The position numbers and the translations under genes are program-made. Positions 2,232-49,184 of a stretch of 64,000 bases of DNA are shown here, one piece after another. This DNA comes from a bacterium (GTDB lineage: Bacteria; Patescibacteriota; Minisyncoccia; UBA6257; JAGOQP01). Numbering within the stretch: the first letter of the stretch is position 1; the number at the start of each line of letters is the position of its first letter. The notes beneath the pieces were generated by a model, which had not been told where the DNA came from, ran no database searches, and saw only the letters and a program-made list of their open reading frames with translations. The stretch covers positions 8,920-72,919 of the forward strand of contig JAKAHY010000002.1 in the NCBI GenBank assembly GCA_021814695.1, read 5' to 3'.

Positions 2232-2266
2232 AACAAAATCACCCGCAAGGGGTGATCTTATTTTTG
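2232..2266. terminator. Bidirectional terminator (downstream of the GIY-YIG gene)
   Basis: ATCACCC-gcaa-GGGTGAT with T-runs on both sides. Confidence 0.55.
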
Positions 2267-2290
2267 TGGAGATGGGAGAGTTGGCTCCGA

Positions 2291-2530
2291 CTAAACTAAA
2301 TGCTTGTTTCTAAAAGCTATTCCCGAACCACTTTTCAGATATTTTTCAAAGTTGATCGCCTGTTCCTTGTTATGAAAAGTGCAGTGCCAAGCAATAATAA
2401 ATGGCGCTCTACTTGAGCTATATTTGGAACCATAACTATTATGTTCCAATAGTCTTTTCTTAATATCAATTGTGATGCCCGTATAGAAACTCCCATCTTT
2501 TAAACTGCGAAGAATATAGACAAAATACAT
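2291..2530 (-). CDS. GIY-YIG nuclease-domain protein (small stand-alone UPF0213/YhbQ-like)
   Basis: 79 aa; the YFVYILRSLKDGSFYTGITIDIKKRLLEHN motif matches the GIY-YIG core. Confidence 0.85.
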   Translation of the reverse strand: MYFVYILRSLKDGSFYTGITIDIKKRLLEHNSYGSKYSSSRAPFIIAWHCTFHNKEQAINFEKYLKSGSGIAFRNKHLV

Positions 2531-3498: not shown

Positions 3499-5643
3499 AT
3501 GAAAAAATCTTCATTAATCGTGGTCATTTTGCTTGTTGTGGCAAGCGTAGGAATGACCGTCATCTTTTCAAATCAAGTGTCGATAAAGGGATTTCTATCG
3601 AGCGTTTATTCTACTGCATCAGGCAGAAATCATATACAGCTGGCAAACGCTCAGTCCTTGGGACAGGGGGTTGTAGTTTTTAAAGCGCAATTTGGCCATT
3701 TGGAAGCAACCGGCCAAGTTGTCTCCGGTATTTCCGGACTAGCGGGGCTGCCGGTGACAAAATTTGTTCCCGACAGAGACCTTTCGGATTCTGAAAAAAA
3801 GCAGGTTGAAGTAAACATCACCGAAGAGAACACCGTTTTCGGATTTATTGTGGCAAAAAACGTTTCATTAGGGCAGGGAATCGGTTTTAACATTCCCCAA
3901 GGAGAAGTTTATAACTACGGTTTTTATGTGAATTCCGACATCCTTCCTCAAGGATGGACATATAACTCTTCTTGCGTAGAGACGGGAGGAAATATTAAAT
4001 TATCTGCCGGCCAACAAAGCGAATGCACGATAGGTTTTTATCTGAAACCAACGCCTGCGCCGGTTACTCCTCCCGCTTCGACGTCCACTCCCGTCTCACC
4101 TCAGGAAGGAGCGTCAGGTACCGTTATTAGTGAAGATTCCGGTTCTGGATCGCTGCAGTTTGTAAAAAATATTTTGGACTTAAGTACGGGGTGGAAAAAC
4201 CCCGGATCGGATAAAATATTGGACGCAAAAATCGTTGAATTATACGGAAAGAAATTTCTTATTGTTTCGACTCAAAACAAACATTTGCTTGTTTACGATG
4301 CTTCAAACCAGTTTTCGCCGGTTCTTTTGAAAGATAATGATTTATCAGGCAGTAACGTGTCGGCGTTTTATCTTGTGGTTTTAGATAATTTCAATTACGT
4401 ATTTGCCTGGGGAGGAAACTCTGCCAACTACGGATCTTTTAAGATTGAACAAGACGGATCTGCGTCTCTGGTAAAAAGTTACAAACCTGACCAATATAGC
4501 GTTACTCAACCGAATTTGGTTTTCGGGTTGTTTAGAGGGTTAGACGGTAAAGCGTATGGATTTGGAGGGAACGGGGGCGATGGATGGCTAACTATTTATG
4601 ACGTGTCCGATCCGGCAAACATCAGCGAAATTGGATCATATCAAGATGGCTTAGTCGGGAATCACTGCGGCAATTATGGTCTGATTGGATTGGACAGGCC
4701 GCTTCAATGGAATACTTCTCAACAAGGGAACAAGCTTTATCTGGTAACTCATGCGGACCAGTGCGTCCAGCGGCTGCATACTTCCGGAGACGCCAGAATT
4801 TATATTTTTGACGTTTCTGATCCAAAAAATCCGCAGCTTTCCCATCAATATGAGCTTTCCGGTTCTTTTAACCACATACCTTCGGACGCGACTAAGGCCG
4901 AACAGACATTTCTTTTTGGCGGGATCGCCGACATTGCCGTTGATTCAAATTCGGGTAAGGTTTTTGATTTTTACAGGACGGTTTTTGATTGGCAGGGGCC
5001 ATCCTGGTCTCAGATAGCAAACATAGTGCATGGTACTTTGTTTAGATACAGAACCGGACTGGTCACTCTTTCACTGCAATCGGACGGTTCTCTAAAAGAA
5101 TTGTCGCGGGCTTTATTGTGCGAACAAAAGGGCCCAATGTATGATGGTGGCGGTCCGCAATATTATCGATGCGGCGACGTGGATGGAAACGACAAAAATA
5201 CCCAAGGCGGATATGATTATTCGGCAAGAAATTCTCAACAAAATTACAACGGAGTTTTTCTCCTCAGTGGGCCGGGAAATAGCGGTCAGGTGGGCTTACT
5301 AAGGAGTGATAATAGTTTTGTTGTCATTCCCGATACCGCCGGAGAGATGACTAAATTTAAGACGGCTATTAAAGATTCATCTTATTATTCGAATATCTAT
5401 AATCCCGCTATCAATGGTGTTGTGACCCAGGTTGACAGTAAAACATTTGCCATCTATCAATTTGATAGTTATTCGTTAAGCGTCGTTAAGGTTTTGTTGT
5501 CGCAATCTCTTGTGGGGGGATCGAAAAATCCCTCTCCTCCAGTGACCGGAGTTGCGCCTTCGGCAAACGTACCACTAACATCACCCGCATTTTCATTTAA
5601 TGCGCTCCTGAACATCTTCAGAAGGATACTTAACAACTACTAA
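3499..5643 (+). CDS. Secreted/surface LVIVD-repeat (beta-propeller) protein, paralog 1
   Basis: N-terminal signal/TM segment; repeated (Y/I)xDVSDPxNP LVIVD-like motifs; Pro/Ser/Thr linker; conserved C-terminal tail AFSFNALLNIFRRILNNY. Confidence 0.7.
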   Translation: MKKSSLIVVILLVVASVGMTVIFSNQVSIKGFLSSVYSTASGRNHIQLANAQSLGQGVVVFKAQFGHLEATGQVVSGISGLAGLPVTKFVPDRDLSDSEKKQVEVNITEENTVFGFIVAKNVSLGQGIGFNIPQGEVYNYGFYVNSDILPQGWTYNSSCVETGGNIKLSAGQQSECTIGFYLKPTPAPVTPPASTSTPVSPQEGASGTVISEDSGSGSLQFVKNILDLSTGWKNPGSDKILDAKIVELYGKKFLIVSTQNKHLLVYDASNQFSPVLLKDNDLSGSNVSAFYLVVLDNFNYVFAWGGNSANYGSFKIEQDGSASLVKSYKPDQYSVTQPNLVFGLFRGLDGKAYGFGGNGGDGWLTIYDVSDPANISEIGSYQDGLVGNHCGNYGLIGLDRPLQWNTSQQGNKLYLVTHADQCVQRLHTSGDARIYIFDVSDPKNPQLSHQYELSGSFNHIPSDATKAEQTFLFGGIADIAVDSNSGKVFDFYRTVFDWQGPSWSQIANIVHGTLFRYRTGLVTLSLQSDGSLKELSRALLCEQKGPMYDGGGPQYYRCGDVDGNDKNTQGGYDYSARNSQQNYNGVFLLSGPGNSGQVGLLRSDNSFVVIPDTAGEMTKFKTAIKDSSYYSNIYNPAINGVVTQVDSKTFAIYQFDSYSLSVVKVLLSQSLVGGSKNPSPPVTGVAPSANVPLTSPAFSFNALLNIFRRILNNY

Positions 5644-5656
5644 AAATTTAAAATAA

Positions 5657-5686
5657 AGCCCCCTGTAAATACAGGGGGCTTTTTGA
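5657..5686 (+). terminator. Rho-independent terminator
   Basis: AGCCCCCTG-taaata-CAGGGGGCT followed by TTTTT. Confidence 0.6.
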
Positions 5687-5696
5687 ATGTGATATA

Positions 5697-8321
5697 ATGA
5701 AACAAATGAAAAAAACATTACTCATCGGGTTTATTGTGGTCGGCATTGTAAGCTTTTCGGCATTTACCGCGCATGCTCAGTCGGTCAATTATCTTAGTAA
5801 ATTTTTTGCAGATGTCTACGGAGCGTTTTTTGGGAATTCCCAAACGCAAAAAGTTGACGCCCAAACAGTGGGTAATGGAACACTTACTATTCATGCTCAG
5901 ATATGTCAGACGCTCGGGAATTTCGAAAATCCAAGCAGTGCGACCTGTTCTGGTACTCCTCGCGACCCCAATTCTACGGAGTCTCCGTTATTTGTTTATG
6001 ATGTCCAGCGCATAGTTGGGAATGGAGCGAGCGCTCAAGTTACCACAGTTCTTTCAGGTATCGGTCCCGGACAAAGTTATTCGTTACCGGCGAATACTCC
6101 AAACGCTAGTAATAATAACAGAGATGAGTACGTGATTGTGTTTAAGGGGGCACCGACAAATTATTTGTACGTGAGACAAGGAGGAAATTTTGATTTGCCC
6201 TATAAATTTTCAATTTCTTCCGGACAAAATACTCAAGTAAATATTCCTTATGTTATTTATACGGCGATTGAATCAACGGGTCCTGTTGGCACTACTGTTA
6301 CCGCCGATATTGTTGATGGCAATGGAAATTTTGTCAGAGCGCTGACGGCTTCAGAAATTCAATCGGTATCCTTTGACATCCAGCATTCGGTTCCGGCCAC
6401 CGGAGGATATGTCGGATCGCATGCGAACAATTTTGATACTCAAGTTTCTTCGGGAAAATTAAATACTTCATATCAGCTTGCGACCTATGTCCATTCCGGT
6501 TCAATTTTGACAAATATTAAGCCACCATCCGGTTACGTAGTCAGATCAATTAAGCCGGGAACATATTTTGATCCTACTGATGACGTTACTATTCATTTTA
6601 CCAAGTCTCCTGTTTCGTCTCAGGTTCAAAAAGTTGATCAAATGCTCTATGTTCCTAATGGAATTAGCTATGTAAAAAAAATAGCTCAAACATATTCGGA
6701 CAATGAATACAAATATTCGAATCTTGACGTTGATTTATTTGCTTATTATGGAAACAATAATCGTCCTTTTCCCTTGAACTGGACAGTTGCCAAATATTCG
6801 GGAGTTCCTTATTTGTTTATGAATGGAGCAGGAAAGATAGTTATTTATAATATTTCCGATCCTAAAAATCCCAAACAAGTTAGTGAATATGTTCTTTCCG
6901 GTTTGGAAAAATTTAATCAATACAAAGATCGTCAGGGAAATACTTATGGACAGTGTTCTCCTAACCAAGAAGGTACTCATGATTTTATAACTGGAGCCGG
7001 TAAAGTTTTTGCTCTTGATGATTCCCCTTATCTTTTGATTGACATTCAGAGACCGGGTGGGCCAGGCCCTGGAGGGACGGCAGTTTTGTCCTTAGATCCT
7101 TCAACTATGGCCATAACCGCCTATCCTCAATGGACCGAGTGTAACAGTGGTCAAGATACTCCCGGAACCGCTTTCGGAATGTATAAAGGAAGTGACGGAA
7201 ATACTTATTTTATTTCCCAATTCCCGAATAATGCATATGATACGGGTGGAGTAGATACCGGGAATATTGGTATTTACACAATCAATTCTGCTGGTATTGC
7301 CAATAAAGTTGTCGTTCTCAGCGGAATGTCCGGGATTGCTCCGAGTTTGGATTATTCTAATGGAACAATCTCTGTTGTTTCCGTTGGAAGTAAAAAATAT
7401 CTTATTGGTAATGGAAAATCATCTATCGCAAACATAAATTCGACCAGTGCACCAATTTATATTTACGATATTTCCAATCCAAAAAATATAATCAAAATCA
7501 ATCAACAGATCACGGTGTCTACGTCTGGGTCCGGCAGATTAAAAATTGACGAACAAGCCAATCGTATGTATGTTCAGTCATCCATTCCAAATCCTGCCGC
7601 AACATCAACTTCGTACACCATCCCCAAAACATTACCTATTTGGCAGGTATATGACTTGAGTGTTTTGCCCAGTACTCCAAAATTAATTGCTACTTATAAC
7701 AAACCAACCGACCTACTTAATTCAAGTCAAGTGAATGCTGATTTTTCTCAAATTACCAAGAGATTAAATATTGCATCGTCAGGTAATCTTGTGGATATAA
7801 ATAATTCTTCTTTCACTTACGGCGCCTACGGATATTCTTCTTCACTCCAGTTGATAAATGTTTCAAATAATTTAGCTTATATATCACTGTATACAAACGG
7901 AAAAAACCCTTGGGATACGATTGCCAATCAAGCCGGAGTAACGGACGGAAGCGAATACGGGACCAATGCTATTCAATTTATAGTTGACGTGTCCAATGCG
8001 TCCAGTCCCAAAATACTTGGAATGATATTCGGGCATACGGAATATTCTGCTTACGGACTTTCCGCCGGCGGATGGTTTGATGTTCCTCTTTACGGAAGTA
8101 TCTATAACTATAACGGATATATTTACCGAGCCAATTTCCGCATCGCTGATGTATGGAAATTGGGGAATCCTCCGGCCCAAAGTACGGGAGGTGCTGGAAG
8201 TGGGGCTGGTGCGAGCGGCACTGGAACTACCGAAGGAGGATCTGCGCCATCATCAGTTCAATCTCCATTTTCTTTCAGTTCTCTTTTGAAGATATTCCAG
8301 AGAGTGTTTAATAATCAATAA
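5697..8321 (+). CDS. Secreted LVIVD-repeat protein, paralog 2 (874 aa)
   Basis: Signal peptide; IYNISDPKNPK and IYDISNPKNI repeats; Gly/Ser/Thr linker; tail PFSFSSLLKIFQRVFNNQ. The likely start may be the second ATG at 5706, which would make the mRNA leaderless. Confidence 0.65.
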   Translation: MKQMKKTLLIGFIVVGIVSFSAFTAHAQSVNYLSKFFADVYGAFFGNSQTQKVDAQTVGNGTLTIHAQICQTLGNFENPSSATCSGTPRDPNSTESPLFVYDVQRIVGNGASAQVTTVLSGIGPGQSYSLPANTPNASNNNRDEYVIVFKGAPTNYLYVRQGGNFDLPYKFSISSGQNTQVNIPYVIYTAIESTGPVGTTVTADIVDGNGNFVRALTASEIQSVSFDIQHSVPATGGYVGSHANNFDTQVSSGKLNTSYQLATYVHSGSILTNIKPPSGYVVRSIKPGTYFDPTDDVTIHFTKSPVSSQVQKVDQMLYVPNGISYVKKIAQTYSDNEYKYSNLDVDLFAYYGNNNRPFPLNWTVAKYSGVPYLFMNGAGKIVIYNISDPKNPKQVSEYVLSGLEKFNQYKDRQGNTYGQCSPNQEGTHDFITGAGKVFALDDSPYLLIDIQRPGGPGPGGTAVLSLDPSTMAITAYPQWTECNSGQDTPGTAFGMYKGSDGNTYFISQFPNNAYDTGGVDTGNIGIYTINSAGIANKVVVLSGMSGIAPSLDYSNGTISVVSVGSKKYLIGNGKSSIANINSTSAPIYIYDISNPKNIIKINQQITVSTSGSGRLKIDEQANRMYVQSSIPNPAATSTSYTIPKTLPIWQVYDLSVLPSTPKLIATYNKPTDLLNSSQVNADFSQITKRLNIASSGNLVDINNSSFTYGAYGYSSSLQLINVSNNLAYISLYTNGKNPWDTIANQAGVTDGSEYGTNAIQFIVDVSNASSPKILGMIFGHTEYSAYGLSAGGWFDVPLYGSIYNYNGYIYRANFRIADVWKLGNPPAQSTGGAGSGAGASGTGTTEGGSAPSSVQSPFSFSSLLKIFQRVFNNQ

Positions 8322-8330
8322 TAATTTGAA

Positions 8331-8360
8331 ACAATCCCCCTAGCTGGGGGATTTTTTTGC
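8331..8360 (+). terminator. Rho-independent terminator
   Basis: ATCCCCCTAG-CTGGGGGAT followed by TTTTTTT. Confidence 0.6.
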
Positions 8361-8396
8361 AAGCAATGTGATATAATAAAACAAATAAAAATAACC

Positions 8397-10580
8397 ATGA
8401 AAAAATATTCATTAATTGTGATTATCTTACTTGTTGTTGCAAGTATAGGGATTACCGCTATCTTTTCAAGTCAAGTGTCGATAACCGGATTTCTTTTGAG
8501 CGTTTACTCAACTGTTTCGGGGAGCAATCAAATACAGAGAGTAAATGCACAAACGACAGGCCAAGGAACCATATTATTCCAAGGCCAATTCGGTCATCTT
8601 GAATCGACCGGAAAGGTCACTACCGGAATTTCGGGCTTATCCGGACTTCCGGTGATGAAATTTGTTAAAGACCGTGACCTATCTAGCGATGAAAAAAATC
8701 AGATTAGAGTGGATGTTATTGAACATAACACTCCTTTTGAATTTGTAGTTGCAAAAAATATTTCGCTTGGAGAGGGTGTTAATTTTAATATTCCCGTAGG
8801 TTCGACATATAGATATAGTTTTTATGTTCACCCCGACTCGATTCCCTCCGGATGGGTTTATTATTCCGGTTGTTTAGAGACCGATGGGAATGTTTCGGTA
8901 CTGGCCGGTCAGCAAAGTACTTGCAGCATAGGATTTTATTTAAAGCCCGAAACAATCTCACCCCCTCCGGTCACATCAACATCTACGATCACGTCTACTC
9001 CTTCGGTAGGTGTTTCGGGAACTGTTGTCGGTGAAGATGCCAGCGCAGGATCGTTGCAGTTTGTAAAAAACGTTTTGGATTTAAGCTCACAAAGAAAGGG
9101 CATTATTTATGGAGTTTTGGACGCAAGAACCGTTAATTTGTATGGAAAAAATCTTCTGATAGTTGCTAGAGGTGGAGCTTACTCTGCTACCACTCCAACC
9201 TGGCATATGCTTGTTTATGATATAACCGATCCGCTTGCCCCGGTTCTTTTGAAGGATAATGATATGTCCGGAAGTGGCATAATCTATAGTTCTCCAATGA
9301 CCGGTTTGGCAGTGCTTGATGGCTTTAATTATGTATTTGTCCGTGGAAATGTCGGTTACGGTTCGTTTAAAATTAATCAGGACGGAACTGCGTCTCTTGT
9401 GAAAAGCTATAAATATTCTGAAGTTCAGCAGATACAGACAGATTTAATCAGGGGATTGTTCAACGGTCTGGATGGAAATATATACGGCTACGGAGGGTTT
9501 GTGCAGGATGGAGGACTCGTGCTTTATAACGTTTCCGATCCCGCTAATATTATTCAAGTTGGAACGTATACTAATGGTCTTGAACCAGCGATTGCCATCT
9601 ATGGACAAATTGGATTGAATCGCCAGAGCACTTGGGGCGTTGTTAAAGAAGGAGGCAAACTTTATCTTATTGCTCATGCGGACCAGTTGGTTCTGCGCCT
9701 TCATACGGATTATGATGGAATGATTTATGTTTTTGATGTGTCCAATCCGGCAAGTCCGCAGCTTTCACATATCTATAAAATGTCCAGCTCCTTTAATCAC
9801 CTTCCTTCCGATATGACTTCGTATGAGAAGATGTTTCTTTACGGAGGAGAAGCTAATATATCGGTTGATCCAATATCAAATAGAGTATTTGATTTTTACA
9901 GAACGGTTTTTGATTGGCAGGGACCCAATCAGCTTAAGATAAAAGACATTCCTAAAGGAGCCTTGTTTCGTTATAGAAATGGAATAGCCGTTCTTTCAAT
10001 AGGAATCGATGGTTCTTTGAAATCAAGTTCCAGTAACATATTATTGTGCGAAAGAATAGCCATTCAAGATAATGGGACGTCAGGCGAAGATAAATGTGAT
10101 ACAAAGAGTCCCGAAACGGTTGGGGGATATTATAGTTCCAGTCTTTATGGAAACAGGAATCCTCAAGAAAATTATAACGGAGTATTTCTTCTTGGCGACG
10201 TGAATAATGTCGGACATGTAGGGCTGTTAAAAAGCGATGGTAGTTTTGTTATCATACCCGATCCAACCGGAGAAATGCTTAAATTCAAATCTGTCTTGGC
10301 TGACCCGTCGTATTATTCCGATCCTGGTTTTCGTTCGTCTCCAATCAATGGCATTGTCACTCAAGTTGATAGCAAAACCTTTGCAATATTTCAGATTGAT
10401 AATTATTCCATAAGTGTTACAAAGCTAAATCTATCACAATCCATAACGAGCGTAACACAAAAATCTTCGCCACCTACCACAAATGCCCCTAGTTCATTAA
10501 ATACATCATCTCCTACTCAGACTCCATTTTCCTTCAGCTCGCTCCTGAGAATATTTCAGAGGGTGTTCAATAGTCAGTAA
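8397..10580 (+). CDS. Secreted LVIVD-repeat protein, paralog 3 (close duplicate of paralog 1)
   Basis: The N-terminal 100 aa are nearly identical to the 3499 protein; tail PFSFSSLLRIFQRVFNSQ. Confidence 0.7.
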   Translation: MKKYSLIVIILLVVASIGITAIFSSQVSITGFLLSVYSTVSGSNQIQRVNAQTTGQGTILFQGQFGHLESTGKVTTGISGLSGLPVMKFVKDRDLSSDEKNQIRVDVIEHNTPFEFVVAKNISLGEGVNFNIPVGSTYRYSFYVHPDSIPSGWVYYSGCLETDGNVSVLAGQQSTCSIGFYLKPETISPPPVTSTSTITSTPSVGVSGTVVGEDASAGSLQFVKNVLDLSSQRKGIIYGVLDARTVNLYGKNLLIVARGGAYSATTPTWHMLVYDITDPLAPVLLKDNDMSGSGIIYSSPMTGLAVLDGFNYVFVRGNVGYGSFKINQDGTASLVKSYKYSEVQQIQTDLIRGLFNGLDGNIYGYGGFVQDGGLVLYNVSDPANIIQVGTYTNGLEPAIAIYGQIGLNRQSTWGVVKEGGKLYLIAHADQLVLRLHTDYDGMIYVFDVSNPASPQLSHIYKMSSSFNHLPSDMTSYEKMFLYGGEANISVDPISNRVFDFYRTVFDWQGPNQLKIKDIPKGALFRYRNGIAVLSIGIDGSLKSSSSNILLCERIAIQDNGTSGEDKCDTKSPETVGGYYSSSLYGNRNPQENYNGVFLLGDVNNVGHVGLLKSDGSFVIIPDPTGEMLKFKSVLADPSYYSDPGFRSSPINGIVTQVDSKTFAIFQIDNYSISVTKLNLSQSITSVTQKSSPPTTNAPSSLNTSSPTQTPFSFSSLLRIFQRVFNSQ

Positions 10581-30227: not shown

Positions 30228-30299
30228 GCGGGTATCGTATAGCGGCTATTATACTTCCTTGCCAAGGAAGAGATACGGGTCCGACTCCCGTTACCCGCT
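30228..30299 (+). tRNA. tRNA-Gly(GCC)
   Basis: Cloverleaf: acceptor GCGGGTA/TACCCGC, anticodon loop TTGCCAA, discriminator T, CCA not encoded. The T-loop TCCGACT is unusual because position 55 is C. Confidence 0.7.
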
Positions 30300-30340
30300 C
30301 AAAAACAAAAATTACCCAAACGGGTAATTTTTGTTTTGGG

Positions 30341-30466
30341 TGTTGACGGGGTAGGATGCGGGGTGGTCGAGGGGCTGCAAGCCCCTCGTGTTGGAAATTA
30401 TTCAAAACCGAGGGTTTTGAAGGAGCGAATATAATGAGCGACGTCCGATTTCCCGTTACCCGCTCA
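30341..30466 (+). repeat. tRNA-trailer mini-element copy E1 (ends with a duplicate of the tRNA-Gly(GCC) 3' end)
   Basis: Contains hairpin CGAGGGGC-tgcaa-GCCCCTCG, then tgttggaaatt, then aaaccgagggtttt, ending in tcccgttacccgctca. Confidence 0.6.
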
Positions 30467-30502
30467 AAAACAAAAAGCACCACAAGGGTGTTTTTTGTTT
30501 TC

Positions 30503-30650
30503 TGTCCGCCCGGAAGGGAGTCTCACGTCGCTCCGACATTGCGTCGGAGCTCCCAAGACACCCTCGGTTTCTTGACGCTCCTCCGGAGCTTTTTCCTACA
30601 CGGGAGATTAAGCATCTCCCGACCCCTCTCTATTCAATTCCTTGTTGACG
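30503..30650 (-). repeat. tRNA-trailer mini-element copy E2 (minus orientation; ends with a tRNA-Lys 3' end duplicate)
   Basis: Minus strand: aattgaatagagaggggtcgg, hairpin GGAGATGCTTAATCTCC, cgtgtaggaaaaag, cgtcaagaaaccgagggtgtcttggg, then gtgagactCCCTTCCGGGCGGACA. Confidence 0.6.
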
Positions 30651-30689
30651 AACAAAACAAAAAATATTCACAAAGGATATTTCTTATTT

Positions 30690-30826
30690 TGTCCGCCCGG
30701 AAGGGAATCTCACGTCGCTCCGACCTTGCGTCGGAGCTCCTTAAAACCATTCGGTTTTAATATTTCCTCCACGGAAAACCTTCGGTTTCCCGACCCCATC
30801 CGATTTGATTCCTTTACTGACGAATA
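30690..30826 (-). repeat. tRNA-trailer mini-element copy E3 (minus orientation; ends with a tRNA-Lys 3' end duplicate)
   Basis: Minus strand: ggaatcaaatcggatggggtcgg, hairpin GGAAACCgaaGGTTTTCC, gtggaggaaatat, hairpin TAAAACCgaatGGTTTTA, then gtgagattCCCTTCCGGGCGGACA. Confidence 0.6.
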
Positions 30827-30865
30827 TAAAACAAAAAGCACCACAAGGGTGTTTTTTGTTTTCTG

Positions 30866-30938
30866 TCCGCCCGGAAGGGATCGAACCTTCGACCGTCTCC
30901 TTAAGAGGGAGCTGCTCTACCAGCTGAGCTACGGGCGG
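30866..30938 (-). tRNA. tRNA-Lys(CTT)
   Basis: Minus strand: CCGCCCGTAGCTCAGCTGGTAGAGC...CTCTTAA...GGTTCGATCCCTTCCGGGCGGA; anticodon CTT. Confidence 0.85.
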
Positions 30939-35154: not shown

Positions 35155-35438
35155 TTTGATATTTGACGAAGTCAATATATTCTGTTTTTATATTCTTTCG
35201 GACTGGTAATGTGGACAGTTTTCTGAAACAATAAATATGACACTGTGTGGGTGTCGAGCGTTCACGTTCTTTGTTTTAATTATCTATCGGTCTTGAGCCG
35301 AAGAGTTTTTTACACGCATTTATTTGTTTATTTGAATTAAAATTGGAAATTGGTATTTTTTCTTGTATTTCACCCGTGGTGAGGCATAGTATGTCGGTAG
35401 TACGTGCATTCGTTACGTTAGATAAATATCGGGCTGTA

Positions 35439-35509
35439 GTATACCGGTAGTACGTGCGCTTCGGGTGCGTAAAGACCGGGTTCGATTCCCGGCAGCCCGA
35501 CTAAAATAG
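35439..35509 (+). tRNA. tRNA-Pro(CGG)
   Basis: CGGGCTG acceptor, anticodon loop TTCGGGT (G37), T-arm CCGGGTTCGATTCCCGG. Preceded by a TTGTAT-17-TAGTAT promoter. Confidence 0.85.
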
Positions 35510-35544
35510 AAATCCCATTCGGGATTTTTATTTTTGCTTGGACT

Positions 35545-35681
35545 CCGGAAATTGAATCAGAAGGGGTCGGGGAACCTGTGGTTCCCCGTGTAGGAAAAAG
35601 TCCGCCCTGGGCGGACGTCAAGAAACCGAGGGTGTTTTGGGAGGAGTGAAACGACGACGTGAGATTCCCGGCAGCCCGACG
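35545..35681 (+). repeat. tRNA-trailer mini-element copy E4 (ends with a tRNA-Pro 3' end duplicate; followed by a second terminator and a 5' fragment of another copy at 35730-35748)
   Basis: ggaaattgaatcagaaggggtcgg, hairpin GGAACCtgtGGTTCC, cgtgtaggaaaaag, hairpin GTCCGCCctgGGCGGAC, cgtcaagaaaccgagggtgttttggg, ending gtgagATTCCCGGCAGCCCGAC. Confidence 0.6.
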
Positions 35682-35772
35682 AAAATAAAATTCCCCTTTA
35701 GGGGAGTTTTATTTATGTTTGGGTTTCAGGGGAATTGAATCGGAAGAAAAATGTTCTTAAATTTGATATACT

Positions 35773-36822
35773 TTGTTTATGTCTTCGAATAAATCTCAAT
35801 CTATTCTGATAGTTCTTTTGCTGGTTTTTTTGCTGGCTATTTCTTTTTTTGTTATTGAACCATATTTAACCTCTATAATATTGGCAACGGTTTTTGCCAT
35901 TGTTTTTTGGCCGGTTTACAGACGGCTTTCTGGAATTATCAAGCTCGGGGGATTTGATGCGTTGATAATGGTCTTTCTTGTACTTGTCGTTTTTTTAATA
36001 CCTCTTACTTTTGTCGGTTCGAGGGTTTTAAGTGAAGCTTACAGCGCCTATAATTCAATTTTTAATGCAAACGGAAATGCTCAAATAACCTCCACTATCA
36101 GCTGGCTAAATCAAAAGATAAATGAATCAGCCCCGACTTTTATCGGTCCAATTGATTTGACTGGATATGCCAAGTCAATATTGGAATGGTTTTTGGGAAA
36201 TCTTGGCACAATCTTTACTGGAGTTGCCAGGGGATTATTTACTTTTGTTCTAAGCTTGTTTATGCTCTTTTATTTTTTCAGGGATGGAAACAAAATAAAA
36301 AAATTTCTTATTGAACATAGTCCGCTGAACGAACCTTACAATACCCGGCTTATAGAAAAAATACGGGAAGCAATTAATTCGGTAGTGAGAGGATCGCTTA
36401 TTGTGGCTTTGCTTCAAAGTATCGTGAGCGGAATCGGATTTTATATATTTGGAGTTCCCAATCCGTCTTTATGGGGAGGTCTGACTTTTGTTGCCGCTTT
36501 CGTTCCAACACTCGGGACTTCTTTAGTAATCGTTCCGGTGATTGTTTATATGTTTTTTGCATCAAACACTCTGATGGCCTTAGGTCTTGCCGTCTGGGGA
36601 ATACTTGCCGTTGGTTTGATAGATAATACTTTAGGGCCGATACTTGTCGGAAGGGGAATGAAAATCCATCCCTTGGTTGTCTTTATTGGAGTTTTGGGAG
36701 GAGTCAGTTTGTTTGGGCCGATAGGTTTTATTGTGGGACCGATAGTTTTTGCTCTTCTATACGCAGTATCGGATATTTATTTTGAATTTATAAAAAAAGA
36801 CAATCAATCCTCCGAAACTTGA
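35773..36822 (+). CDS. AI-2E family transporter (UPF0118, PerM-like)
   Basis: 349 aa with about 8 TM segments; LFMLFYFFRDG-type motif. Confidence 0.65.
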   Translation: MFMSSNKSQSILIVLLLVFLLAISFFVIEPYLTSIILATVFAIVFWPVYRRLSGIIKLGGFDALIMVFLVLVVFLIPLTFVGSRVLSEAYSAYNSIFNANGNAQITSTISWLNQKINESAPTFIGPIDLTGYAKSILEWFLGNLGTIFTGVARGLFTFVLSLFMLFYFFRDGNKIKKFLIEHSPLNEPYNTRLIEKIREAINSVVRGSLIVALLQSIVSGIGFYIFGVPNPSLWGGLTFVAAFVPTLGTSLVIVPVIVYMFFASNTLMALGLAVWGILAVGLIDNTLGPILVGRGMKIHPLVVFIGVLGGVSLFGPIGFIVGPIVFALLYAVSDIYFEFIKKDNQSSET

Positions 36823-37355: not shown

Positions 37356-37462
37356 AAATTATAGTGACATTGCATGAGTGTGGGTTCGGTTCTCGCTGGA
37401 TCTACCAAAAACAAATCCCCCCTTAGTTATCTAGTTGACTTTCGGATAACTTTTGATTACTA

Positions 37463-47791: not shown

Positions 47792-47839
47792 CTCCGAGCA
47801 TGTCTCGGAGATTTTTTTAATCAAAAAATAATATTTGAA

Positions 47840-47960
47840 AATATCCCGACAAGTGAGGGGATTTTGTATAGTCCTTCTTCGCATAAAGCTTCGAAGGACA
47901 CTTTTCGTCTGGCTTGCACTTCGTAGCTCGCCAGGGCGAAGAAGTGAGCGGGTAAGGGGA
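47840..47960. repeat. Perfect about 121 bp direct repeat, copy 1 (duplicate of the tRNA-Gly(TCC) 3' end plus about 105 nt of trailer)
   Basis: Identical to 48069-48188. Confidence 0.8.
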
Positions 47961-48068
47961 AGTCTTACGCTCACCCCCGACCCCCGCTTAAGAAACCTTC
48001 GGGTTTCTTACGTCCCTATTTTCCAACACGGGGGTTCGCATTCGACTCCCAAACTCACCCACAAAAAA
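47961..48068 (-). repeat. tRNA-trailer mini-element copy E5 (rearranged family member) sitting between the two 121 bp direct repeats
   Basis: Minus strand carries gtgttggaaaatagg, hairpin GACGTAAGAAACC-cgaa-GGTTTCTTAAGC and gggggtcggggg modules. Confidence 0.5.
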
Positions 48069-48188
48069 ATATCCCGACAAGTGAGGGGATTTTGTATAGT
48101 CCTTCTTCGCATAAAGCTTCGAAGGACACTTTTCGTCTGGCTTGCACTTCGTAGCTCGCCAGGGCGAAGAAGTGAGCGGGTAAGGGGA
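48069..48188. repeat. Perfect about 121 bp direct repeat, copy 2 (overlaps the true tRNA-Gly(TCC) 3' end and trailer)
   Basis: Identical to 47840-47960. Confidence 0.8.
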
Positions 48189-48941: not shown

Positions 48942-49014
48942 GGGCCGTTAGCTTAGTTGGTAGAGCGCCTCGTTTGCAACGAGGAGGTCACCGGTTCGAA
49001 TCCGGTACGGTCCA
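48942..49014 (+). tRNA. tRNA-Ala(TGC)
   Basis: GGGCCGTTAGCTTAGTTGGTAGAGC... anticodon loop TTTGCAA, G3:U70, T-loop TTCGAAT. Confidence 0.9.
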
Positions 49015-49060
49015 CATAACAAAAAAATTGCCTAGCGCAATTTTTTTGTTATGATGAATC

Positions 49061-49184
49061 AGGGTCGGTTTGAATATTTAGGGGTCGGGGTATTTGTAAA
49101 TACCCCGAGTAAGAAAATTTGAGAAACCGTGGGTTTCTCACGAACGAATGAAATGAGTGAGGTGAGATTCCGGTACGGTCCACA
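49061..49184 (+). repeat. tRNA-trailer mini-element copy E6 (ends with a tRNA-Ala(TGC) 3' end duplicate)
   Basis: tttgaatatttaggggtcgg, hairpin GGTATTtgtaAATACC, cgagtaagaaaatt, hairpin TGAGAAACCgtgGGTTTCTCA, ...ggtgagaTTCCGGTACGGTCCACA. Confidence 0.6.

Follow-up and report, generated by a model that had tools for sequence, protein, structure and literature searches.

The 64-kb stretch of DNA analysed here (the window) carries, between murI and an AI-2E transporter gene, an intact tRNA-Pro(CGG) gene followed by a mini-element, E4, that is enclosed by two direct repeats (Table 1). All four features listed in the original prediction are present and non-random, but their coordinates shift. The tRNA gene itself, predicted at 35439-35509, was placed by ARAGORN and Rfam several positions upstream, and the predicted terminators correspond to terminator-like hairpins. 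The second copy of the tRNA 3' end and its terminator is real but longer than reported: it forms part of an extended direct repeat (~80% identity between the copies), to which the motif previously read as a fragment of the 5' end of another element also belongs, as a remnant of arm X. The tRNA 3' end GATTCCCGGCAGCCCGAC is present exactly twice in the window (0 matches in shuffles), and the two occurrences are separated by only ~120–160 nt. Judged by its complementarity, the motif ggaaattgaatc is an antisense copy of the T-arm, and arm X with its flanks forms 13 Watson-Crick and 2 G-U pairs over 19 positions with the T-arm of tRNA-Pro. The E4 scaffold consists, in order, of the linker AGAAG, GGGTC, P2, GTGTAGGAAAAA, P3, P4, GGAG, a short P5 and CGACGTGAGA, the last of which resembles a T-loop with GA in place of TC. 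The site thus holds one full unit and the first third of a second; partial second units of this kind are also found in loci L127, L137 and L072. No promoter-like site was found between terminator 1 and arm X, so expression of the element would need read-through. Neither the upstream tRNA relic nor the tRNA 3' copy was called as a tRNA.

Table 1. Features of the tRNA-Pro locus and sister copies of E4 in the window
Feature	Position	Strand	Evidence or content
5'-half relic of an older, displaced tRNA-Pro	35383-35410	+	19/21 match to tRNA; colinear with L137; acceptor 5' strand remnant, D-arm, anticodon stem 5' strand
Degenerate left inverted repeat CGTTACGTTAGATAAATAT of the putative tRNA-Pro-bringing cassette	35411-35429	+	Aligns with CATCCCGTTAGAGAATCAC in L137
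Intact tRNA-Pro(CGG), acceptor CGGGCTG/CAGCCCG	35430-35501	+	ARAGORN; Rfam RF00005, 55.8 bits (threshold 29 bits)
Direct repeat copy 1	35484-35567	+	tRNA 3' end from T-loop, terminator 1, spacer, arm X, linker
tRNA 3' end, first occurrence	35484-35501		
Terminator-like hairpin 1	35510-35527		Stem, followed by T-tract
Whole mini-element E4	35545-35664		
Arm X CCGGAAATTGAATC, antisense to tRNA-Pro T-arm	35545-35558	+	Pairing with T-arm
Mini-element scaffold, conserved	35559-35664	+	Family alignment, covariation
P2	35568-35588		
P3	35600-35616		
P4	35619-35639		
Direct repeat copy 2, start of truncated second unit	35663-35747	+	tRNA 3' end, terminator 2, X remnant
tRNA 3' end copy	35663-35680		
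Terminator-like hairpin 2	35691-35705		Followed by T-tract
X remnant	35729-35746		
AI-2E transporter gene native trailer and promoter region	35748-35778	+	Aligns with empty site L141; right-hand edge of insertion
Sister copy at tRNA-Gly(GCC) (tRNA 30228-30300)	30337-30467	+	X, scaffold, tRNA 3' end copy
Two tandem sister units at tRNA-Lys(CTT) (tRNA 30865-30938, minus)	30504-30815	-	Scaffolds 30520-30643, 30707-30815; tRNA 3' end copies 30504-30519, 30691-30706
Circularly permuted sister copy at tRNA-Gly(TCC)	47838-48065	-	228-bp unit: 105-nt element (47961-48065) plus distal copy (47838-47960) of perfect 123-bp repeat
Sister copy at tRNA-Ala(TGC) (tRNA 48942-49015)	49066-49174	+	X, scaffold, tRNA 3' end copy 49159-49174

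Two related genomes (L133/L134 and L141) share the order murI, tRNA-Pro, AI-2E gene and carry empty sites, in which the promoter and ATG of the next gene come straight after a bare tRNA-Pro; in L141, the sequence matching the right-hand edge of the insertion directly follows tRNA-Pro. By contrast, the mini-element occupies the tRNA-Pro site in L127 and L121, each of which has its own tRNA-Pro sequence variant. Comparison with relatives lacking the insertion, as originally recommended, thus revealed bare tRNA-Pro genes, and these empty sites, the filled sites and a split tRNA in L137 support the earlier suggestion of repeated recombination or insertion at this tRNA. The upstream partial tRNA copy is likewise real (0 chance matches expected), but it spans 35387-35407 (TAGTATGTCGGTAGTACGTGC) with 19 of 21 positions matching, rather than 35392-35425 with 22 of 25. 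Chance overlap of a promoter -10 box with the D-arm consensus, raised with the original prediction as an objection, does not hold, as 35383-35429 is colinear with the 5' half of the old tRNA-Pro and the cassette inverted repeat in L137. In that locus, two cassettes interrupt the older tRNA-Pro, one a GIY-YIG cassette and the other flanked by hairpins; the latter carries the same tRNA-Pro allele as the window, and CATCCCGTTAGAGAATCAC pairs with ATTCTCTAACGGG across the new tRNA. By its sequence, L137 appears to show an intermediate of tRNA replacement. An L137-like intermediate comprises old tRNA halves flanking CCCGTTAGAGAAT ... ATTCTCTAACGGG. We propose that a small hairpin-flanked cassette brought the present tRNA-Pro allele and split the older gene, of which the 5' half would survive at 35383-35429 together with the left inverted repeat of the cassette. 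The relic is missing from the empty sites L133, L134 and L141. The upstream half-tRNA stems from this separate event, tRNA gene replacement, and not from the mini-element.

Six copies of the E4 family are found within the window, at five of its eight tRNA genes. The copy at tRNA-Gly(TCC) is circularly permuted and retains the conserved junction sequences, and some copies display one-nucleotide irregularities at the T-loop junction. A sequence-pattern scan for the family yielded at least 120 matching stretches, 16 of which are chance matches in other phyla; the remainder are labelled as Patescibacteria or as unclassified bacterium, save three with other labels (L044, L084 and L109). The family occupies at least 100 loci in Patescibacteria, with matches in Yonath-, Ryan-, Nealson-, Staskawicz-, Kaiser-, Colwell-, Taylor-, Vogel-, Berkel- and Moranii-bacteria, and its junction sequences are strongly conserved phylum-wide. 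Among the matches listed, ~45 lie 30–85 nt past a same-strand tRNA, with most isotypes represented, and in ~30 of these the tRNA 3' end is repeated after the element. Targets comprise T-loops of tRNAs of most isotypes and 3' ends of protein genes, with equal anatomy at EF-G, the S7/fusA spacer, gyrB, a histidine kinase and an L28-like gene. Furthermore, some copies form leaders right before start codons or lie directly between two tRNAs, where complementary flanks are absent. The E4 family is very large, structured and not restricted to tRNAs, which goes beyond the original prediction. It is apparently undescribed, as searches of the literature turned up none. Rfam searches gave no match to the element at the gathering threshold or, on the E4 locus, at E up to 10, recovering only tRNA and tmRNA, and eight further loci had no relevant match at E up to 0.1; specifically, no covariance-model match to HEARO or IS200/IS605 omega RNA, or to any ribozyme or intron model, was obtained. 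The family was also absent from 2.9 million viral contigs, where the sole match was a chance one in a Gly/Arg-rich coding region. At tRNA loci the repeats cause short-read assemblies to break, and the contigs L005, L006 and L150 end inside them.

Each unit consists of a 5' arm X (10–26 nt), a purine-rich linker of 6–9 nt, a scaffold of ~95–150 nt and a second copy of the target, which begins at the junction and extends to the end of the gene or its terminator. The scaffold consensus is GGGGUC-P2-GUGKAGGAAA-[P3]-P4-RGAG-[P5]-CGAC. P2 and P4 covary: with loops replaced by filler and the P4 register picked for best pairing, 95.9% of cells are paired, and double-change cells number 233 compared with 60.5 ± 14.6 in shuffles, none of 500 of which reaches 233. 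Sliding the helix partners abolishes this signal. On the tRNA-sense strand, P2 has 907 Watson-Crick and 15 G-U pairs and almost no A-C, with G-U exceeding A-C. Thus, in its pairing the scaffold behaves as a structured functional RNA, a signal that would fit RNA and folded single-stranded DNA alike. Single-sequence folding of E4 gave z = -1.06 for the plus strand and -1.33 for the minus strand. RNAalifold on a MAFFT alignment recovered P2 alone, because the variable P1, P3 and P5 misalign, and anchor-based extraction was therefore used. At the core 3' end, GTGAGA shares microhomology with the T-loop GTTCGA, and a conserved 2-nt GA/AG mismatch is located beside the junction.

Arm X is antisense to the uninterrupted neighbouring gene and crosses the junction, by about 5–9 nt on the left; for tRNA targets, the junction corresponds to T-loop position 59/60. 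Among the matches listed, an antisense arm scoring at least 20 against the repeat start is found in 44 of 51 copies, compared with 6 of 153 shifted controls, and the arm usually begins 5–9 nt before the repeat. Its pairing is stronger with the intact gene than with the 3' flank in ~25 named loci, among them L045, L046 and L124, whose arms pair at 21 of 21 positions; the arms of the window are imperfect. Direct repeats of at least 14 nt are present in 49 of 90 copies and in 1 of 90 controls, so that about half of the copies among the matches listed have no detectable repeat. Repeat lengths range from 14 to 123 nt, some of 96–123 nt being 100% identical, and the duplications often stop at a terminator or stop codon. 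In protein genes, the two copies of the tail differ almost only at synonymous sites: those of L015 encode 26/26 identical amino acids with 6 nt differences and those of L028 encode 20/20 with 8. A terminator usually lies between the element and the upstream gene. Units can be stacked in tandem or truncated, and truncated units retain the 5' part, not the 3' part.

The element is, or recently was, mobile, since exactly one 228-bp unit at tRNA-Gly(TCC) distinguishes near-identical strains. The presence or absence of this unit is exact, two near-identical haplotypes lack it, and the DNA duplicated in this recent event is native sequence. As generally seen for mobile elements, there is polymorphism with exact boundaries together with empty orthologous sites. 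Equally, a unit could have been deleted precisely between the perfect 123-bp repeats, which would give the same strain polymorphism. Neither the tRNA-Pro locus nor the Lys/Gly(GCC) array is polymorphic in the strain comparison.

On balance, we favour the view that the locus is a layered insertion hotspot, in which a tRNA-replacing cassette was followed by duplicative integration of a mini-element directed by base pairing. E4 would be a single unit of a mobile family that occurs widely in Patescibacteria and is not autonomous. Acting as RNA or as folded single-stranded DNA, arm X would choose the site through base pairing, and an enzyme acting in trans would join the 3' end of the scaffold at the junction. 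The stretch from the junction to past the gene end would finish up on both sides, so that the gene is kept intact. Units might then move between lineages via recombination in the flanking homology, so that the tail beside the gene would be an import and the native one would lie displaced downstream. The anatomy, covariation, target-antisense arm, repeats, empty and filled sites and strain polymorphism are shown by the data; that X serves as a guide, whether the intermediate is RNA or DNA, and that a trans factor exists are inferred.

Part of this evidence can be read in other ways. The tRNA 3' repeat flanks the insert and the intact tRNA lies at one end, as at att sites, and the repeats might accordingly be the attL and attR of a tyrosine-integrase island or prophage that has since been deleted. 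Indeed, the repeats begin in the T-loop, and tRNA-targeting integrases usually leave the intact tRNA as the promoter-proximal copy, which is also its position here; imported and displaced tails in protein genes and a large serine recombinase within ~500 nt in four loci would agree with such an origin. It is nevertheless highly unlikely and already largely refuted: a single covarying scaffold of ~100 nt lies between the repeats at most isotypes and in unrelated protein genes, there is no adjacent integrase and the polymorphic unit is merely 228 bp, 44 of 51 copies bear an arm antisense to their own target, and the viral contigs are devoid of the family. At tRNA-Pro, the insert contains neither an integrase gene nor kilobase-sized cargo, and no recombinase was found in its Pfam-annotated neighbourhood. 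A different possibility is that the scaffold is a structured RNA module of the host (a processing signal, 3'-end stabiliser or leader) that multiplied passively, its repeats and arms arising from template switching at strong hairpins, by slippage or quasipalindrome correction, with no dedicated insertion mechanism. Phylum-wide conservation of the junction sequences, copies before start codons or between two tRNAs (where RNase P and RNase Z would cut them free), the failure to find a mobility enzyme, the duplication of native sequence in the recent event and the GTGAGA/GTTCGA microhomology all speak for it. Template switching, however, does not predict regular arms of 10–26 nt that are positioned 6–9 nt from the scaffold and cross the junction; nor does it predict tails diverging only at synonymous sites or dozens of unrelated target genes, and a terminator usually parts the element from the upstream gene. 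We therefore regard a host RNA origin as unlikely.

Target-primed reverse transcription of a SINE-like retroelement at an X-paired nick, with a second, staggered nick generating the long variable duplication, appears quite improbable. It would account for the precise 3' junction, the variable 5' junction with short spacers, the native duplications of 14–123 nt that often end at a terminator or stop codon, and the one-nucleotide irregularities at the T-loop junction. Yet no reverse transcriptase is found near any copy, reverse transcriptase fall-off would spare the 3' part of a truncated unit and not the 5' part that is actually kept, and the reprogramming of the arm is left without account. 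Finally, X might act as the internal guide (P1/P10) of a group I-like intron or self-cleaving ribozyme, with RNA cleavage or splicing joining the gene body and tail. This we consider the least credible alternative, even though the arm crosses the junction with the polarity of a group I guide and conserved junctions with circular permutation are typical of small ribozymes: no ribozyme or intron family of Rfam matches even with the E cutoff raised to 10, a group I or group II core would need a far larger scaffold, and splicing would be pointless, as the upstream tail already completes the gene. Other candidates were rejected. A GIY-YIG ORF placed in the loop of P4 within a full element was dismissed because P4-like inverted repeats are confined to the L137 cassette, which lacks the conserved junctions; a DGR-like template and variable repeat, because differences between repeat copies are not adenine-specific; and insertion in a pre-existing hairpin loop, for tRNAs, because the left arm is antisense, not sense, to the T-arm.

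Returning to base-pair-directed insertion, a more specific and tentative possibility is that the scaffold and antisense arm constitute the nucleic-acid part of an undescribed system, widespread in Patescibacteria, for insertion or recombination programmed by base pairing. The arm would specify a junction in an essential gene, the duplicated or carried tail would serve as a built-in rescue, and the protein partner would be encoded elsewhere in the ~1-Mb genome. Neighbour-protein clustering of the loci revealed no recombinase, nuclease or reverse transcriptase recurring beside copies; the neighbours are housekeeping genes, with GIY-YIG in seven loci and a large serine recombinase in four. Pfam annotation of 47 kb of the window likewise revealed none of these enzymes, and no split or ORF-bearing 'autonomous' copies were found among the fetched loci. 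Guided insertion meets several difficulties. It gives no account of how X is made for a new target. The perfect 21-nt arms include tRNA-specific acceptor sequence, suggesting that the arm is copied from the target and is not merely a fixed matching guide. Moreover, X matches an intact gene in its own chromosome, so a plain RNA-guided nuclease would cut its own genome. The imperfect arms of the window, the copies lacking repeats, and the leader or between-tRNA copies with no complementary flanks also argue against it.

Patescibacteria have tiny genomes and few recognised mobile elements. Against this background, an element of ~100 nt is located at five of the eight tRNA genes within 64 kb and is found again in many orders of the phylum. 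Were insertion directed by the antisense arm, the family would provide a compact programmable targeting system with a partner enzyme and a new way for a selfish element to occupy essential genes harmlessly; should the programmed-insertion reading be true, engineered 'home-and-rescue' drives would have a counterpart in nature. Replacement of tRNA genes via small hairpin-flanked cassettes is, in turn, a little-known route of tRNA evolution. In practical terms, the pseudo-tRNA fragments and duplicated gene tails produced by the repeats confuse annotation.

Several known systems share individual properties with the E4 family. Like IS200/IS605 elements, PATEs and the omega RNAs of TnpB and IscB, it has small structured ends and apparent site choice by base pairing, and, as among those systems, stand-alone copies with no protein gene occur; its guide-then-scaffold order is that of IscB omega RNA. 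The guides of omega RNAs copy the flank in the sense orientation, the known guide sequences of IS200/IS605 comprise 4 nt and, to our knowledge, IS200/IS605 insertion involves no target duplication. The E4 arm, by contrast, is longer and antisense to the nearby gene, is accompanied by a target duplication and has no TnpA, TnpB or IscB nearby. The bridge RNA of IS110 is similarly a non-coding RNA with guide segments across the target recombination point. It has two internal loops, for target and donor, and lies beside its recombinase in a transposon of >1 kb, whereas E4 has a single continuous 5' arm, no recurring adjacent DEDD or serine recombinase and a long target duplication. Folded single-stranded att sites, such as integron attC and CTX-phi attP (XerCD), offer another parallel: X and the 3' flank would rebuild a double-stranded target, and the GA/AG mismatch recalls the unpaired bases directing strand choice. 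Integron attC and CTX-phi attP are recognised by a dedicated recombinase and have one fixed sequence or structure, whereas here the stem differs per target.

GIY-YIG cassettes use the same hotspots in these genomes and duplicate tRNA or tmRNA ends (window 2265-2530, L082 and L137), but the mini-element encodes no protein. The PF01541 GIY-YIG domain is detected in the window ORF 2291-2530 on the minus strand (E = 5e-14) and in L137 (E = 5e-16); GIY-YIG ORFs beside the mini-element show no enrichment beyond the level expected of a shared hotspot. A free-standing GIY-YIG homing cassette in a tRNA cluster is exemplified by SegB of phage T4 (PMC2330249). Bacterial structured intergenic repeats and MITEs, including REP/BIME, ERIC, Correia/NEMIS and RPE (reviewed in PMC10969869), resemble the E4 family in size (100–170 nt), multiple copies, location at gene 3' ends and potential for RNA structure. 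MITEs, however, have conserved terminal inverted repeats and short fixed duplications, whereas in the E4 family the termini (X/X') vary per locus, the interior is conserved and the duplications span 14–123 nt. Close parallels in anatomy are provided by integrative elements targeting the 3' ends of tRNA and tmRNA genes, with insertion in the T-loop, a replacement 3' end that keeps the gene intact, a displaced 3' repeat downstream and tandem arrays. Tyrosine integrases acting at such genes use crossover sites in the T-loop or anticodon loop. The E4 unit differs in its size of only ~105–230 bp, its lack of an integrase and its variable duplication of 14–123 nt, and a single family scaffold, combined with a target-specific antisense arm, serves most tRNA isotypes and protein genes as well.

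At tRNA-Pro(CGG), comparison with related loci indicates that the insert is one complete unit of a mini-element and, after it, the first part of another (tRNA 3' end, terminator and a remnant of X, the 5' arm antisense to the target gene). The original prediction placed a tRNA-Pro gene here with a second copy of its 3' end; both are present, but ARAGORN and Rfam put the gene ~9 nt further left, and the repeat extends further than claimed. The two copies align with ~80% identity and share an 18-mer, GATTCCCGGCAGCCCGAC, which occurs exactly twice and has no match in any shuffle. The predicted motif ggaaattgaatc also exists and turns out to be arm X, an antisense T-arm. More distant relatives form a graded series. 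The site is empty in L141 (L numbers denote fetched loci or contigs), where the neighbouring transporter is 81% identical, and in L133/L134 (66%); in all of these the transporter promoter and ATG lie within 19–30 nt 3' of tRNA-Pro. The same site is filled in L127 (transporter 86%) and L121, the tRNA-Pro allele differing in each, and six contigs of the window's strain are all identical. The segment following the insert aligns with the trailer that is native to L141, which means that all sequence between the T-loop and 35747 was inserted. Arrangements of such '1.4 units' recur in L127, L137 and L072. In its behaviour the locus resembles a tRNA integration hotspot, a kind already known. Three short-read contigs of this strain (L005, L006 and L150) break off within the tRNA-Pro and tRNA-Lys repeat regions, and thus the elements fragment short-read assemblies at tRNA loci. 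Moreover, a hairpin-forming sequence between murI and tRNA-Pro, GACACTGTGTGGGTGTC, has the same position in L127, L133, L137 and L141, is kept in all orthologous loci, empty ones included, and may act as the terminator of murI or have a regulatory role.

The tRNA-like copy predicted 5' of the gene is likewise real, although its span differs, with 19/21 positions matching where none is expected by chance. In L137 (1560-2080) an older tRNA-Pro, with the acceptor CGGGGCG of the empty-site allele, is split at two places. Window 35383-35429 is colinear with the 5' half of this older gene plus the left inverted repeat of the tRNA-Pro cassette, and thus the upstream half-tRNA records a tRNA gene replacement, an event distinct from the mini-element copy 3' of tRNA-Pro (E4). 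The L137 arrangement looks like a mobile hairpin-flanked cassette replacing a whole tRNA gene. A stray tRNA-like 3' fragment with an encoded CCA, GGGTTCGGTTCTCGCTGGATCTACCA, lies 27 nt 3' of tRNA-Ala(CGC) and has no scaffold adjoining it.

Positions and make-up of the features (window coordinates unless a locus is named)
Feature	Position	Strand	Content
tmRNA gene	2672-2988	minus
tmRNA 3' region	2265-2690	minus	conserved leader module, GIY-YIG ORF, second tmRNA 3' end, terminator
GIY-YIG ORF	2291-2530	minus	79 aa; Pfam E = 5e-14
Second tmRNA 3'-end copy	2265-2283	minus	from its T-loop
Leader module	2542-2577; 47864-47899; 48092-48127		GTCCTYCGWAGCTTTATGCGAAGGAGGRC...; last two after tRNA-Gly(TCC), without ORF
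Paralogous ORFs	3499-10580		714, 874, 727 aa
murI/tRNA-Pro hairpin	35239-35255		GACACTGTGTGGGTGTC
Upstream tRNA-like copy	35387-35407
tRNA-Pro(CGG)	35430-35501
18-mer	35484-35501; 35663-35680		GATTCCCGGCAGCCCGAC
tRNA-Pro direct repeat	35484-35567; 35663-35747		tRNA 3' end from T-loop, terminator hairpin, motif GGAAATTGAATC / GGGAATTGAATC
Terminator hairpins of the repeat	35510-35527; 35691-35705
Native trailer	35748-35775
tRNA-like 3' fragment	37382-37407		GGGTTCGGTTCTCGCTGGATCTACCA
L137 split 1	after position 10 of old tRNA-Pro		GIY-YIG ORF cassette, flanks CCCCGTTAGAAAC/GTTTCTAACGGGG
L137 split 2	anticodon loop		cassette CCCGTTAGAGAAT - complete tRNA-Pro (acceptor CGGGCTG = window allele) - ATTCTCTAACGGG
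Unit layout			tRNA, terminator, ~110-nt body, tRNA 3' end from T-loop, usually terminator
Hosts of window units			tRNA-Gly(GCC), tRNA-Lys(CTT) (two in tandem), tRNA-Pro, tRNA-Gly(TCC), tRNA-Ala(TGC)
Unit consensus, 5' part		tRNA-sense	[X] - purine-rich linker - GGGGTC - P2 hairpin - GTGKAGGAAA
Unit consensus, 3' part			(optional P3 hairpin) - P4 hairpin (TTAGAAACC...GGTTTCTAA) - RGAG - (P5 hairpin) - CGAC - [X' onward]

Six units of one layout are found in the window. A degenerate pattern of the conserved body, run against one genome per prokaryotic species, gave at least 120 matching stretches; 16 among the matches listed are chance matches in other phyla, and the remaining listed ones are labelled Patescibacteria or unclassified bacterium, except three with other labels (L044, L084, L109). 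Paceibacteria/Parcubacteria orders dominate the listed non-chance matches. Among 2.9 million viral contigs the sole match is a chance one inside a coding region. None of the Rfam 15 families fits, whichever of the thresholds is applied, and the full-text literature, as far as our incomplete coverage reached, yielded no description, so that an earlier one is possible. The element is not tied to tRNAs: genes for EF-G, gyrB, a histidine kinase and an L28-like protein show this anatomy at their 3' ends, as does the S7/fusA spacer. Some scaffold copies (L082 570-660; L081) lie directly between two tRNA genes without complementary flanks, where processing by RNase Z and RNase P would free a ~95-nt RNA. 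Another subgroup (L021, L039, L064, L108) has the 3' end GCGAGCGACTAAC ~25 nt 5' of a start codon (e.g. of ribosomal protein S14), as if serving as a 5' leader.

The family has a conserved folded scaffold. P2 has 74 distinct sequences in 103 copies and forms 907 Watson–Crick and 15 G–U pairs with hardly any mismatch, and P4 covaries at positions 6-9. In an alignment of 80 distinct copies, extracted by anchors and with filler in place of loops, 95.9% of cells are paired, and double-change cells number 233 versus 60.5 ± 14.6 after shuffling (0/500 shuffles attain 233); shifting the partner strand by one column lowers pairing to ~59%. Single-sequence folding energies are uninformative. Furthermore, three copies (the window tRNA-Gly(TCC) copy, L137 and L099 position 2502) are circularly permuted, with ends open at the P2 loop, the P1/P5 side closed and the conserved junction sequences unchanged. 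Together, the covariation and the permuted copies with the same junctions argue that selection acts on a folded single strand, which may be RNA or ssDNA. The variable hairpins P3 and P5 are often runs of GCGAA/GCGAG units (GAGCGAAGCGAGCGAAGCG..., e.g. in L125, L007, L051 and L123) that include the GCGAAGC mini-hairpin motif, and in some copies their AGCGAAGCG insert is also found within the T-loop-like 3' end.

The element comes with a duplication of variable length that always reaches the gene end, and units may be tandem or truncated. In 49/90 copies (controls, 1/90) a stretch of 14 nt or more from the 400 nt upstream recurs as a direct repeat in the 3' flank, and about half of the copies have no detectable repeat; the longest repeats, 100% identical, measure 96 nt (fetched loci) and 123 nt (window). 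The 3' junction is precise, the scaffold ending where the downstream repeat copy starts; upstream, the intact gene's own tail serves as the other copy, usually ending at a stop codon or terminator. Immediately 5' of the linker lies arm X, 10–26 nt long (median 15), with its 3' limit 6–9 nt ahead of GGTC. X and the beginning of the upstream repeat reach an inverted-repeat score of 20 or more in 44 of 51 repeat-bearing copies, as against 6/153 shifted control windows. The complementary site usually starts 5–9 nt upstream of the repeat, and X thus reaches across the junction in the uninterrupted target. In ~25 named loci the intact gene is a better pairing partner for X than the decayed 3' flank is, with arms pairing at 21/21 (L045, L046, L124) or 16/16 (L036) positions. 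In the tRNA class, the junction is T-loop position 59/60, and the donor side is always GTGAGAT or GTGAAAT, a version of the T-loop GTTCGAA in which GA stands for TC and which gives a tandem G–A mismatch against X.

In protein genes both tails are in frame and differ almost solely by synonymous substitutions (L015, 26/26 residues identical with 6 nt differences; L028, 20/20 with 8; similarly L018, L025 and L033), and thus each evolved in a lineage of its own as a functional gene end; one was imported with the element and the other displaced. Presence/absence polymorphism is recent at tRNA-Gly(TCC), where a 228-bp unit, consisting of a 105-nt permuted element and a perfect second copy (123 bp) of the native stretch from T-loop to terminator end, occurs in the window as well as in L142 and L145 and is exactly absent from L143 (GCA_027423305.1) and L144, near-identical haplotypes. 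Loss by exact deletion from one perfect repeat to the other could also have produced this polymorphism; the existence of two distinct empty haplotypes speaks for a recent gain.

We propose that X would pick the insertion site through base pairing, that a trans-acting enzyme would join the element there, leaving the gene tail on both sides, and that subsequent movement between lineages would proceed via flanking homology. Three routes would fit the geometry: one by staggered nicks, resembling target-primed reverse transcription, folded-ssDNA recombination like that of attC or CTX-phi, and a guide-dependent recombinase. Arm X also matches the intact gene on its own chromosome, which is a problem for guided insertion. 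No mobility enzyme was found to recur among genes next to family copies or to lie in the annotated part of the window, nor was a promoter found 5' of X at the tRNA-Pro locus. We rate the mini-element as a non-autonomous integrative element; that it represents a new type of insertion system, programmed by base pairing, seems to us less likely than not.

The window also holds three adjacent paralogous ORFs, with ~70% identical DNA segments 4.9 kb apart, similar promoter/leader regions and a faint LVIVD-repeat as the sole recorded Pfam match. The GIY-YIG cassette at tmRNA is protein-coding and has the same layout as the mini-element, in which the 3' end of the gene is duplicated. The ORF-less leader modules at tRNA-Gly(TCC) are probably a decayed GIY-YIG cassette, later duplicated along with the mini-element. 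By their defining tests, the mini-element belongs to neither integrase islands, MITEs, IS200/IS605 omega RNAs, IS110 bridge RNAs nor known ribozymes; it has single features in common with each of them.
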